Assembly: GCA_964643435.1 (NCBI GenBank)
Contig: CAZXPY010000002.1
Location: forward strand, 16,794 to 73,612
Origin: an uncultured Gammaproteobacteria bacterium
Lineage (GTDB): Bacteria; Patescibacteriota; Microgenomatia; Woykebacterales; RBG-16-39-9b
Direction of reading: 5' to 3'
Length of the DNA: 56,819 bases
Below the pieces are notes generated by a model. That model was not told where the DNA came from. It was given only the letters and a program-made list of their open reading frames with translations, and did not search any database. Within the stretch, counting starts at the first letter, position 1. Each line of letters begins with the position of its first letter. A program made the position numbers and the translations under genes. Of this stretch, positions 19,812 through 47,293 are shown in pieces.

Positions 19812-20264
19812 ATGGAAGGAATGCAGGTCTCTCCTCAAATCGAAACAAGAAGCAAATTAAGTCTTTCTACCACAAAAGTTTTGGTAATAATTGGTTTAAT
19901 AATAATTGTAATTGCTGTTCCGTTAACCGTGTTCTTGGCAAAAACCCGGCAAGAACCTCGTTCCAAAGCAGCTGAACCTCTACCTCCCCTAACCAAAACG
20001 TTCAAACTAACCTTAACTTCACCGGCTGATGATTTAGCAACGAACCAAAACGTAGTTACCATCTCCGGATCAGTTAATAAAAAGGCGATCATCTTAATTT
20101 CTGGAGGTCTCCAAGAGGAAGCGATTGAAACCACAAATCAATTCTCGCAAAACTACGCTCTTACCTTAGGTGATAACCAGATTGAAGTAACTGCTTTTGA
20201 TGAAGAAGGGAACGAGGTTGGGCAAGTTAGAAATGTTTTATACGTGACGGAACCGCTTGAGTGA
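19812..20264 (+). CDS. Single-TM protein with RSKA motif and Ig-like domain
   Basis: TM-PLTVFLAKTRQEPRSKA; LTSPADD...ISG...LGDNQIEVTA. Confidence 0.75.
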   Translation: MEGMQVSPQIETRSKLSLSTTKVLVIIGLIIIVIAVPLTVFLAKTRQEPRSKAAEPLPPLTKTFKLTLTSPADDLATNQNVVTISGSVNKKAIILISGGLQEEAIETTNQFSQNYALTLGDNQIEVTAFDEEGNEVGQVRNVLYVTEPLE

Positions 20265-21250
20265 GATCACTCGTAAATTCTATGAAAAAAATTATTCTTT
20301 CGACAATAATATTATTCTTAGTGGCAACTTTAATTAGAGTTGATGTTTTTGCTCAAATCCCCGCTCCCCGCCTGTCAAATCCCCGTTCCTCAACACCGAG
20401 CGCCACTGCTAGCGCAAGAGTGGCTACGGCAAGTGCAAGACTTGCCAGTCCTCGAAATTTTGTCACTGGTGTGCTTGTTGCTATTGACGGTACAACCCTG
20501 GTTATTAAAGTTTCACCTTCCGGTCTTAAAGAACCGGAAAGAACTATTTCGGTTGCCACGAATGAAAAAACTAAGTTCTTCTCCATACCAAAAGGTAAAA
20601 GGATTTCGCTTTCCGATCTGGACAATGGTGATAGATTAGCGGTAACCGGGATTAACCCAAAAGATTCGCAAGGAACAGCCCTTTTTGTCTTCCAATTAAA
20701 CCCTTCGATTCCGCCAAGAGTTATTTCCCTTTTAGGTAAAATTACGCGGGTTGAGGATAGTGGTTTTAGTATTGAATCGGTTATTCCAAAAAGAAGTGGT
20801 GAATGGGAGGTTAGAACTACTGAAAATACTAGAATTATAAAGAAGGGTGAGAAAGTCACGGTCAGTGATTTACAAGTTGGCGATGGCGTTCTTGTGGTTG
20901 GGCTCACAACTGGCGAAAATTCTTTAAACGCGAGGTTGGTGGTGGTGTTAGGAACCTCTTTTCTAAAAGCAAAAATTAGTGGGGGCATCCTAAAGAAACC
21001 ACCGGTTGCTACTCGCCCTGCCGGTAGAGGACAAGAAGCCACAAGGGCGGCAACCATAGGTTCTTGTTTGGATCTAAACGGAGATAATAAAGTCACCATT
21101 GCTGATATTAGTGAAGTTGCCAAAAGAGGCCCAAGCAAAAGTGGTGATTCTTTGTACAATGAAAAATACGATGTAAATAGTGATCGTGTAATTGACAAAG
21201 AAGATGTAAAGGCAGTCGCTGCCCAGTGGAATAATACTTGTAGTCAATAA
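20261..21250 (+). CDS. Secreted DUF5666 repeat protein with C-terminal dockerin-like domain
   Basis: Two DUF5666-like repeats; paired Ca loops DLNGDNKVTIAD and DVNSDRVIDKED. Confidence 0.8.
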   Translation: MRSLVNSMKKIILSTIILFLVATLIRVDVFAQIPAPRLSNPRSSTPSATASARVATASARLASPRNFVTGVLVAIDGTTLVIKVSPSGLKEPERTISVATNEKTKFFSIPKGKRISLSDLDNGDRLAVTGINPKDSQGTALFVFQLNPSIPPRVISLLGKITRVEDSGFSIESVIPKRSGEWEVRTTENTRIIKKGEKVTVSDLQVGDGVLVVGLTTGENSLNARLVVVLGTSFLKAKISGGILKKPPVATRPAGRGQEATRAATIGSCLDLNGDNKVTIADISEVAKRGPSKSGDSLYNEKYDVNSDRVIDKEDVKAVAAQWNNTCSQ

Positions 21251-21268
21251 AAAAAGGCCAGAAGCTTT

Positions 21269-21655
21269 TTAGCCCTGGCCCAATTTGTTCTTTAGTTCTC
21301 GCAACAGGGCAAGTTGGCTACGATAATAGCTAGTCAACGCTTCTAAAACTTCAGTCATAAGATGATCCGAGGATTCGGATTTTTCCCACTCACGTCTAGC
21401 CTTAAAGATCCCTCCACGAGTCAATGCACTTTGGGTTAGCTCTGCTATCGTTGAATAGCTAAACTCCATAAGGGACCGAAGGTTTTTTTCGGAAATGTGC
21501 AGCCTAGAAATATGGTCGCTAGAAGGCTCCTTGTACCCTAGCCTCGCAAGCTGGCTTTGGATCGTGTAGATACCTTCGGCAAGTAGCCGGAACTTTTGTC
21601 TTTTCTCTCTCCTTAAACGGCGCTGGACCACTCGAACAGAACGGTTTTTCCTCAC
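21269..21655 (-). CDS. Hypothetical basic protein
   Basis: SD AAGGAGG upstream of an in-frame GTG at 21655 (called ORF starts 144 nt earlier across hairpins). Confidence 0.55.
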   Translation of the reverse strand: MRKNRSVRVVQRRLRREKRQKFRLLAEGIYTIQSQLARLGYKEPSSDHISRLHISEKNLRSLMEFSYSTIAELTQSALTRGGIFKARREWEKSESSDHLMTEVLEALTSYYRSQLALLRELKNKLGQG

Positions 21656-21706
21656 TTTCGGTGAACCTCCTTGCCAAGCTAAGCTTGGATTGAGAAAGTC
21701 CACCCC

Positions 21707-21741
21707 GGCACGTTGAACGTGCCAGTCGCGTTTGACGCGAC
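21707..21741. repeat. REP-like doublet (GT-N3-AC family)
   Basis: GGCACGT-TGA-ACGTGCC A GTCGCGT-TTG-ACGCGAC. Confidence 0.7.
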
Positions 21742-21827
21742 GCCACCAAGACGTTACTTCGGAATTATCCCATAAAAAGTATAATTTGTAAACTAACAAA
21801 CGGAACTTTTTCGTTTCTTAACCCCAC

Positions 21828-21856
21828 TTGCAAACAGGCAAACGCCATCCTATAAT
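21828..21856 (+). promoter_or_regulatory. Sigma70-type promoter
   Basis: TTGCAA-17-TATAAT. Confidence 0.75.
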
Positions 21857-21896
21857 AGGGCATAAGTAGCAGTTTAGCGAGAAAGGAGATCGAGTT

Positions 21897-45282: not shown

Positions 45283-45309
45283 GCGTAAATTATACCAGGT
45301 GGAGTAATA

Positions 45310-45933
45310 CTAGTAGGAAATAACAACGGTTTTCCCTAACCATGCATTATCTTTTACGCACTTCAGCATAAAATCTGCAACGTCTGCTCTTGAAATGTGA
45401 TCTTTAAGATCAAGATCAAGTTGTTCTCCCATTCGATAATGACCAATTCTCGGTCCATCAGTCAAGGCCAAGGGTCTGACAATTACCCACTCTAAACCAC
45501 TTTCTTTAGTTTCTTTCTCTTGGGCAGTTTTATCATCTAAAATAGGTTGAACAGCAGTAACTTGTTCCTCACTCATTCCCGAATCTTTCAAACGCGCCAC
45601 ACCCTCAGGTGAACCACTAAAAGCATACGAGCTTTCAACAATTAAGCGCTTAACTTTGTGTTTTTTCATTGAATTGATTATGTTTTGGGTACCTTTTGCC
45701 AAAATAGGTATATTAGATCCAAGCGCTAAAAGAACTGCATCTACACCTAAAATTCCTTCATCTACTCTTTGGGGATCCAAAATGTCCCCCCTTACAACTG
45801 TCAATTTGTTATTGACAATCGTCATTTTTTCAGGATCCCTAACAAAAGCCCCTACTTCGTATCCTTGATCTAAAGCCTGTTGGACAATTTGTTTACCTGT
45901 ACCCCCGGTTGCTCCAAAAACGGCGATTTTCAT
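45310..45933 (-). CDS. Flavin/biliverdin reductase-like NAD(P)-binding protein
   Basis: VFGATGGTG, VRDPEK, WVIVRP, ISRADVA. Confidence 0.9.
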   Translation of the reverse strand: MKIAVFGATGGTGKQIVQQALDQGYEVGAFVRDPEKMTIVNNKLTVVRGDILDPQRVDEGILGVDAVLLALGSNIPILAKGTQNIINSMKKHKVKRLIVESSYAFSGSPEGVARLKDSGMSEEQVTAVQPILDDKTAQEKETKESGLEWVIVRPLALTDGPRIGHYRMGEQLDLDLKDHISRADVADFMLKCVKDNAWLGKTVVISY

Positions 45934-46031
45934 ACTTTCACCTCCTGTTTAAATTTTAACAAGATCAATTCTTCTTTTCCCATATTTTAAGATTTCACTA
46001 AAAATGGTAATTGACTTAGTATTATACTTGT

Positions 46032-46274
46032 TTGTTAGATTGTATGTCTATGGATAATGAAGATTTAAAAGCAATACAAAAATTATTTCGTAAGGAATTA
46101 AAAGTGGAGATGGAGCCAATAAAAGAAACGTTAGGAGCAAATACAGAGTCATTAATAAATATAGAAAAAGAAATTAAAGCGTATATGGACGCTTTAGGTG
46201 TGGAGAGAAAAAGAATAGATAAACACGATTCTCGTTTAGAAATAATCGAAGAAAGTCTTAATTTAAACCCCTAA
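46032..46274 (+). CDS. Small coiled-coil hypothetical protein
   Basis: Heptad-rich 80-aa ORF; start may be Met at 46049. Confidence 0.6.
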   Translation: MLDCMSMDNEDLKAIQKLFRKELKVEMEPIKETLGANTESLINIEKEIKAYMDALGVERKRIDKHDSRLEIIEESLNLNP

Positions 46275-46387
46275 GACCCATTCTGATTTACAAACCCACC
46301 AAAAGAAAAACGACTCTGCACTAAAATTCAAGTTAGCTTGAACTGTTTGGTATAATGGGCCTATCAACAAACGGTAGGAGGAGAAGA

Positions 46388-46786
46388 GTGGATCCAGAAC
46401 CGCCGAAACGCAGCCGGATTTTAAGTACACTTGAGGTAAGTGAAAAGGCTAATTTTCTACCTCTACTTAAAGAAATTTGTGGAGGCTGGAACGGAGAGGA
46501 AATTCCTAGTGCAAAGGTTATAATTTGGATTATTAGAAGTCTAACAAATCATCAACACTCTCAAATAGCCATCCGTTTGTTTGGTTTGGACGGCCAGAAG
46601 GCAAGAACTTCTTCCGAGGTCGCTAACGAGATGGGTGTAGGTAGTGTGTGGGTGCGGCAATGCAAAATTCGGATTATCCAAAGGTTGCGTAAGATCCCAA
46701 GAATCATGGTTCTTTTGGGGAGACGAAGTACGCGGGAAGGAGAAGAGATGCTTAGTAACTTTCGGGGTTCCGATCCCTACTATTAG
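46388..46786 (+). CDS. Stand-alone sigma70 region-4-like HTH protein
   Basis: IRLFGLDGQKARTSSEVANEMGVGSVWVRQ resembles RpoD r4; SD AGGAGG before GTG at 46388; extended -10 TGGTATAAT at 46348-46356. Confidence 0.7.
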   Translation: MDPEPPKRSRILSTLEVSEKANFLPLLKEICGGWNGEEIPSAKVIIWIIRSLTNHQHSQIAIRLFGLDGQKARTSSEVANEMGVGSVWVRQCKIRIIQRLRKIPRIMVLLGRRSTREGEEMLSNFRGSDPYY

Positions 46787-46882
46787 CCGGTTGAAACTAG
46801 ACCTGTTTTGTCAAAAACAGGTCTTCTTTTTACAAAATTATTTGACAAATTTTACTCTAAAATACAAAATATAATTAAAAGT

Positions 46883-47293
46883 ATGCGTTCTCTGCCCGTA
46901 AAAAAACTTATTCCTGTTCTTTTCCTTTTGATAGCGATTGTTTTAACGACCCTATATTTTGCTCAAAAAAAGAGTTTCGAAACCAGAACAAGAGCGCAAG
47001 AACCAGTTTCTTCTACTACAAAAAATTATACAGTTGCTTATCAGAATTCAAGATTTACTCCGGAAAAAATTACCATTAAATTTAGTGAAAGTGTAACTTG
47101 GATTAATAAAAGCACTAATAAGCTTTGGGTTGCTTCTGGTCCGCACCCCTCCCATACCCTGTACCCCGAATTTGACTCCAAAAAAGTAATTGAGCCAAAC
47201 GAAAGCTACACTTTTACTTTTACTAAAAAAGGTTATTGGGGTTATCATAACCATACTAATGACGACGCTGAAGGAGTAGTAGTTGTTCCGTAG
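46883..47293 (+). CDS. TM-anchored cupredoxin-fold protein (RTRA motif)
   Basis: FTPEKITIK..ESVTWIN...PHPSH...YTFTF...WGYHNH. Confidence 0.8.
   Translation: MRSLPVKKLIPVLFLLIAIVLTTLYFAQKKSFETRTRAQEPVSSTTKNYTVAYQNSRFTPEKITIKFSESVTWINKSTNKLWVASGPHPSHTLYPEFDSKKVIEPNESYTFTFTKKGYWGYHNHTNDDAEGVVVVP

Follow-up and report, generated by a model that had tools for sequence, protein, structure and literature searches.

Among the described N-terminal secretion leaders, the closest analogue of the one considered here is the YSIRK/GS signal (PF04650, TIGR01168) of Gram-positive LPXTG proteins. This is a conserved motif inside a Sec signal; it is found on a subset of surface proteins rich in sortase substrates, and it marks a secretion subclass while using general Sec and signal peptidase I. 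ESPR signals of autotransporters (PF13018) and KxYKxGKxW signals of accessory-Sec glycoproteins (TIGR03715) are further lineage-restricted, conserved N-terminal leaders on adhesin-like cargo. The present leader was found in a 56,819-nucleotide stretch of DNA (the window, C2:16794-73612) from the 754-kb, 11-contig genome of a bacterium of the candidate phyla radiation (CPR). It stands at the N-terminus of five proteins encoded in the window as a shared tag of roughly 35 residues, in which one hydrophobic helix is followed at a fixed short distance by the motif R-[ST]-[RK]-A. It is read here, with fair rather than high probability, as a class-specific, strongly constrained Sec-type leader which is most likely cleaved after the alanine by the housekeeping type I signal peptidase, LepB.

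When the entire genome was scanned, six copies were found, the five in the window and a sixth at C2:108423-108803 on the minus strand. Each copy has three parts. The n-region is basic, with RDKR, KK or TTK upstream of the hydrophobic stretch in all six. It is followed by a hydrophobic helix of 19-22 residues, longer than a typical h-region, which carries a near-invariant (A/S)-I-P-L-T-V. The third part is a polar, net-basic spacer of 10 residues which terminates in (D/E)-x-R-S-(R/K)-A. The helix ends in (I/V)-P-(L/I)-T, and the alanine of the motif lies exactly 17 residues past the proline. Proline at -17 and threonine at -15, relative to the alanine, are present in five of the six copies; the exception is the cupredoxin protein at 46883, which has no proline. 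The initial annotation of this DNA had proposed that the motif keeps a fixed distance from the helix, and this is borne out. The five peptides that it quoted are all present and are the N-termini of five open reading frames (ORFs); the positions attached to them are those of gene ends, not of the motif.

The five leaders in the window are as follows, an arrow marking the putative cleavage site. Gene 19812-20264 (plus strand) encodes a 150-residue Ig-like protein with a Glucodextran_B-type domain. Its 53-residue leader (19812-19970, plus) ends in VIAVPLTVFLAKTRQEPRSKA↓AEPLPP, with the RSKA codons at 19959-19970. Gene 25879-29892 (minus) encodes a giant protein of 1337 residues with fn3 modules and, according to the initial annotation, a lysozyme-like end. 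It starts with GTG at 29892, matching database protein P0052, and its 61-residue leader (29710-29892, minus) ends in IFIIPLTVFGIKTINDLRSRA↓VTNCS, with the RSRA codons at 29710-29721. The two dockerin proteins with the leader are encoded by 35004-36509 (minus; 501 residues, fn3, CARDB and dockerin) and 37193-38581 (minus; 462 residues, CARDB/DUF11 and dockerin). Their leaders are MEKITARDKRILLIISLVALAIPLTTFGIKTISDLRSKA↓EFSGAN (39 residues, 36393-36509, minus; motif codons 36393-36404) and MEVSARDKRTLLIIVLIALAVPITSFGIKTVEDLRSRA↓QVTPG (38 residues, 38468-38581, minus; motif codons 38468-38479). A Logan contig encodes a protein identical to that of 37193-38581, flanked by the same neighbours. Gene 46883-47293 (plus) encodes the 136-residue cupredoxin protein, whose degenerate 38-residue leader (46883-46996, plus; motif codons 46985-46996) reads MRSLPVKKLIPVLFLLIAIVLTTLYFAQKKSFETRTRA↓QEPVSS and is the weakest of the six by profile score (41 bits).

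The recurrence of the motif was compared with chance expectation. The ORFs, 250,396 residues in all, contain R[ST][RK]A 14 times; for the 11 residues past the helix in about 123 N-termini with a single transmembrane segment, 0.04-0.08 occurrences are expected and six were seen (Poisson P about 1e-10). At residues that are identical between copies the third codon positions mostly differ (matches at 1 of 10, 2 of 13 and 5 of 15), and serine in the leaders is encoded by both TCN and AGY codons. These comparisons indicate that synonymous sites are saturated and that the leader is kept by selection at the protein level; recent gene conversion was therefore rejected as the source of the similarity. 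Simple paralogy from recent duplication does find some footing in the passengers, which were first described as unrelated. This was an overstatement: 35004 and 37193 are paralogs (CARDB and dockerin), and 25879 has a homologous fn3-like module in common with 35004 (33-44% identity). Since three of the five thus share homologous modules, the independent passenger types number three in the window and four when the sixth copy is counted. The passengers of 19812, 46883 and the sixth copy are unrelated, however, and database members form 371 clusters, with no fewer than 37 domain types among them. Together with the Poisson value and the saturated synonymous sites, this makes chance resemblance or simple paralogy scarcely credible as an explanation.

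The leader is widespread in one part of the CPR. With a profile built from the six leaders, the module was detected in 17 of 31 related genomes, on ORFs of diverse length. A broader profile (A3; 25 sequences, 36 positions), searched against 1.84 billion cluster representatives, matched 371 proteins (clusters) at E<=0.001 for the whole library. The alanine lies at residue 34-70 in 142 of the 144 aligned matches, and the proteins range from 55 to 1387 residues in length. The consensus of these 144 members is (A/S)-I-P-L-T-V-(F/Y)-L-V-(K/Q)-Q-(Q/S)-(R/Q)-(D/E)-x-R-S-(R/K/Q)-A, followed by A, Q, S, V or E. Conservation is 94% for proline at -17, 99% for threonine at -15, 92% for the acidic residue at -6, 76% for arginine at -4, 66% for the serine that follows it and 100% for alanine at -1. 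In a sample of the whole phylum the leader was found in 19 of 401 genomes; in a sample of the window's CPR class it was found in 127 of 401 genomes and in 96 of 294 genera. The window's own family, some sequences of which went into building the profile, has it in 15 of 16 genomes, at 1-15 copies each and often in tandem clusters. The initial annotation had proposed a lineage-specific secretion or processing signal and a profile census as the check; the census places the leader far beyond the paralogs of the window, and the proposal is supported by it. Two other searches were less informative. A homologue search with residues 1-45 gave one match, its word index being too coarse for so short a query, and a profile search of the PDB with the leader gave nothing relevant.

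Seven leader proteins were found in metagenome-assembled genome L033 (CAYRJZ010000009.1), which is labelled as an uncultured Gammaproteobacteria bacterium. The label looks wrong: the 1.1-Mb genome is placed in the window's CPR class (G777 = G711), and an occurrence outside the CPR was rejected. In many leaders of the window's family the cytoplasmic n-region carries a further conserved motif, M-R-A-x-D-L-...-Y-R-x-S-I-N-P-P-Y-x-x-K-D (e.g. P0014, P0025, P0031 and P0048). The six copies of the window's genome lack it.

Judged by its sequence, the leader belongs to no described signal family. None of the Pfam (E<=0.01) or NCBIfam (E<=1) models matches the leader N-termini, those for YSIRK/GS, ESPR and KxYKxGKxW (PF04650, TIGR01168, PF13018 and TIGR03715) included. 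The Tat twin-arginine motif, a lipobox cysteine at +1 and the prepilin pattern G↓F-x-x-x-E are absent from the six leaders, and there is no match to TIGR01409 or related models. A literature search that included the motif letters found no description of the leader; the paper on the Pam pilus mentions generic signal peptides only (PMC13278184). YSIRK/GS has no sequence similarity to the leader. Its motif lies at the n/h boundary, whereas the leader has its conserved blocks in the last part of the h-region and in the c-region, and YSIRK/GS belongs to a different phylum. The leader differs from ESPR and KxYKxGKxW in that its conserved part is on the exported side of the helix and in that SecA2/SecY2 are lacking. 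With generic Sec signals of the type I signal peptidase class (LepB/SipS) it has much in common: an N-terminal position, a basic n-region, a hydrophobic core, alanine at -1, mostly serine at -3, no proline at +1 and extracellular cargo. It differs from them in having a sequence and length that are fixed across hundreds of unrelated proteins, a 19-22-residue core, an invariant P-x-T, the net-basic 10-residue spacer, hardly any alanine at -3 and a large polar residue there in 23% of members.

The residues around the alanine resemble a type I signal peptidase site, and cleavage probably follows this invariant residue. Alanine is found at -1 in all six genome copies and in 144 of 144 database members. 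The -3 residue is serine or threonine in all six copies, and serine, glycine or threonine in 77% of the database set (n=144). Proline is never found at +1 (0 of 144), as against 20, 21 and 20 of 144 at +2, +3 and +4, or about 14% each (binomial probability about 4e-10); the +1 and +2 positions belonged to the search profile, so that this count is mildly biased. The +1 residue is most often alanine, and proline is found at -5 in 20% of members. Conservation ends exactly at the alanine. The x-x-A cleavage site put forward in the initial annotation is in keeping with these statistics; the remaining -3 residues and the lengths of the helix and spacer fit it less well.

Several features weigh against cleavage or speak for a type II signal anchor. 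If the helix is left uncleaved, K-Q-Q-(D/E)-x-R-S-R-A would be a juxtamembrane stalk or else a docking site, with the cell wall, lipid head groups or another protein as examples of what it might bind. The hydrophobic stretch matches a stable transmembrane anchor in length. The spacer is both long and charged: it places the putative site 10-12 residues past the hydrophobic stretch, a distance at the upper end of the range for signal peptidase I substrates, and its three basic residues on the exported side are unusual for Sec signals. Alanine, the usual residue at -3, is almost absent there, and the glutamine, lysine, glutamate or asparagine found in 23% of members is disfavoured by canonical signal peptidase I. 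The leader is also conserved beyond what is usual for cleaved signals. Signal peptidase I binds its substrate as an extended strand, so that a continuous helix up to the alanine would count against cleavage. In an AlphaFold2 (AF2) model of the cupredoxin protein, made from the single sequence, a helix runs from residue 6 to residue 37 and ends at the motif; the confidence of this model is too low to choose between a helical and an extended spacer. It should be noted that cleavage and the enzyme responsible are both inferred. An anchor, for its part, does not account for the avoidance of proline at +1 when it is common at +2 to +4, nor for the end of conservation at the alanine. About 40% of the cargo has a separate retention device, so that an anchor would be redundant or the proteins doubly anchored, and the cohesins of the same operons use anchors without the motif. 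The uncleaved anchor is thus considered unlikely.

The export machinery of the genome is simple. LepB, its only membrane-bound type I signal peptidase, is encoded at C1:195181-195816, with a narrower span of C1:195229-195723 also recorded for it, and has the GGSMEP, KR and GDNR boxes. A single LepB is also found in 30 of 31 relatives, and at least 56 of the 127 leader-bearing genomes have one S26 match only, so a second signal peptidase is not needed. SecY (C8:13738-14757) and SecA (C1:82864-84090) are single-copy. Across the 31 genomes SecY is single-copy in all, and there is at most one full-length SecA per genome (none was found in two draft assemblies).

The initial annotation also suggested looking for a co-occurring peptidase. 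The candidates were examined, and none co-varies with the leader. An accessory Sec system was rejected as a required partner, as there is no second SecA/SecY pair among the 31 genomes. A second S26 peptidase was rejected because at least 56 of the leader-bearing genomes have none. There is a rhomboid protease gene at C4:108489-108950, and none in the 16 other sampled genomes of the family. Rhomboids are found in 6 of 31 relatives and in no other leader-bearing genome of the family; this candidate was also rejected. A 100-residue S26-like protein (C10:11553-11843) has GHSMEP, KR and GDS-DSR boxes, is found in most genomes of the family and is probably cytoplasmic. It has no membrane segment and its distribution tracks phylogeny rather than the leader, and it was not retained. 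No subtilase catalytic motifs were found in the window's genome by a simple pattern scan. Sortase is present in 31 of 31 genomes and M50 proteases are likewise universal; they are therefore uninformative as partners. A small M50 protease gene (about 220-240 residues) lies 1-10 kb from leader-gene clusters in several genomes (G003, G008, G009, G012 and G016). In the window's genome it is at C2:106889-107593, near the sixth copy, inside a housekeeping block of def-fmt, ribosomal protein and secE-nusG genes. The adjacency is probably synteny, given this block and the universal distribution, and the small M50 protease was rejected as a partner.

The passengers are of extracellular types. In the 108 database members that were scanned there are 37 Pfam families, all of extracellular domain types. 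Dockerin (22), Big_7 (18), Big_13 (17), cohesin (15) and subtilase (5) domains were counted; fn3, PKD, GH5, CAP, beta-helix and others are also present. A C-terminal [AS]-[IV]-P-x-[TS]-G followed by a helix, which is a sortase-type signal, is found in 24 of 106 members of at least 200 residues. Cohesin, dockerin and sortase-signal proteins are over-represented in the cargo. Genome by genome, 115 of 127 with the leader have a cohesin, as against 145 of 274 others (odds ratio 8.5, Fisher P 1e-14, statistics that ignore phylogeny). In many families the leader stands directly ahead of a cohesin domain within a single protein of 350-400 residues.

The window differs from this arrangement. Here the leader is on two of the three dockerin proteins, and the cohesins have either an anchor without the motif or a canonical signal plus LPVSG and a transmembrane segment. 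The cohesin gene 34392-34988 (minus) is directly downstream of dockerin gene 35004-36509 and encodes a plain N-terminal membrane anchor with no RSxA. A second anchored cohesin, also with no RSxA, is encoded at 36575-37183 (minus), downstream of dockerin gene 37193-38581. The third cohesin (33115-34314, minus) has an ordinary signal peptide (FSAKA↓VFG) and the sortase-type signal. The third dockerin protein (20261-21250, plus), which has a DUF5666 domain, has a canonical short signal peptide (RVDVFA↓QIPAP) and no leader; the leader is therefore not a dockerin-specific device. Ordinary signals with short c-regions, such as VDVFA↓QIP, TPVFA↓NDD and STSFA↓YDI, coexist with the leader in this genome, which makes the leader a distinct subclass and not the organism's usual form of signal.

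About 40% of the cargo has its own retention device, a dockerin or a sortase signal, and so the leader itself would not be what holds these proteins on the cell. Sortase substrates in known systems lose their N-terminal signal. In the reading favoured here, cleavage by LepB, the leader would carry the protein through the single SecYEG/SecA translocon and would be cut between the invariant alanine and the +1 residue, releasing the passenger. The released passenger would then stay at the surface by means of a module of its own. This would be a dockerin, bound to an anchored cohesin, or, in the case of relatives, a sortase signal at the C-terminus. This is close to the suggestion in the initial annotation that cleavage frees the dockerin proteins so that they need the cohesins for retention. 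The composition of the cargo is consistent with that suggestion, which is kept here as a possible consequence of cleavage.

Ordinary signal peptides evolve faster than the mature protein. The leader has the opposite pattern: in five ortholog or paralog pairs, identity in the leader as against the mature part is 98 vs 84% (the 19812 protein and its ortholog P0004), 95 vs 79%, 84 vs 66%, 81 vs 36% and 78 vs 27%. Such conservation suggests a role beyond generic targeting. By analogy with YSIRK/GS, the leader would probably mark certain surface proteins as a subclass to be secreted or cleaved at a particular site, time or rate, while using the general Sec pathway and signal peptidase I.

A dedicated factor could also be the reason for this conservation. 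The P-x-T and R-S-R-A blocks would then form a sorting signal read by something specific to the subclass. This could be a protease distinct from LepB, an intramembrane protease that acts on the P-x-T helix, an enzyme resembling sortase, or a factor that determines localisation. The near-invariant proline and threonine within the membrane, and the arginine at -4 and acidic residue at -6, are required neither by generic Sec nor by signal peptidase I. Only six of about 123 N-terminal single-transmembrane proteins have the leader, the others having ordinary signals; its genes lie in tandem clusters and are strongly associated with cohesin and dockerin. The Y-R-x-S-I-N-P-P-Y part of the n-region motif is common to many family members, and the leader's A-I-P-[LV]-T-V resembles the A-I-P-V-T-G sortase-type motif at the C-terminus of the same proteins. 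However, none of the candidate enzymes co-varies with the leader (rhomboid, second or short S26-like peptidase, SecA2/SecY2, scanned subtilases, M50 and sortase alike), and such a factor is rated a little below the uncleaved anchor, as improbable.

A more specific form of this idea arises from comparison with the C-terminal LPXTG sorting signal. The leader is its topological mirror image, with basic residues inside, a helix next and a signature motif on the outer side. A dedicated factor, which might be the sortase itself or an unrecognised membrane enzyme, would read the intramembrane A-I-P-[LV]-T and the exported (D/E)-x-R-S-R-A. Export would thereby be coupled to cohesin-dockerin surface-layer assembly, through timed release or through an N-terminal alanine that serves as acceptor in transpeptidation. 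Unlike the LPXTG signal, the leader is N-terminal, has valine or isoleucine and not glycine as the fifth residue, and has its motif buried in the helix. A sortase would retain the N-terminal fragment. This coupling is regarded as quite improbable, more so than a dedicated factor in general. The C-terminal sorting motif of leader-bearing cohesin proteins, (A/S)-I-P-V-T-G plus a transmembrane segment, is closely similar to A-I-P-(L/V)-T-V of the leader (e.g. in P0078, P0086 and P0115).

Attachment to other cells is thought to be the way of life of CPR bacteria, most of whose surface proteins lack annotation. With the 36-position profile, sequence alone suffices to pick out a defined set of exported proteins in about one third of the genomes from a large class of the CPR, a set in which cohesin, dockerin, Ig-like and sortase-anchored proteins abound. 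As the helix is of anchor-like length, ordinary predictors may score the leader as a membrane anchor and these proteins may be misplaced. A leader that is more conserved than its cargo, in cells with one Sec system and one signal peptidase, offers a simple testable case of how a minimal cell might separate classes of secreted protein.

Some neighbouring genes of the window should also be described. A gene pair is duplicated in tandem at 18506-19737 and 19812-21250; in each copy a gene for a small Ig protein of the Glucodextran_B type comes first and one for a DUF5666 protein second. The leader (19812) and the dockerin (20261) are confined to the second pair. The Ig paralog at 18506-18982, which is 30% identical to the 19812 protein, aligns with it through F-L-A-K and does not have the eight residues that hold RSKA. 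The cohesin at 33115-34314 has a cytoplasmic tail of about 185 residues after LPVSG and the transmembrane segment, instead of a short basic tail. The cohesin-dockerin cassette is flanked by genes for an HtrA-type serine protease (Trypsin_2 and PDZ; 31949-33073) and a CtpA-type S41 peptidase (39734-40936).

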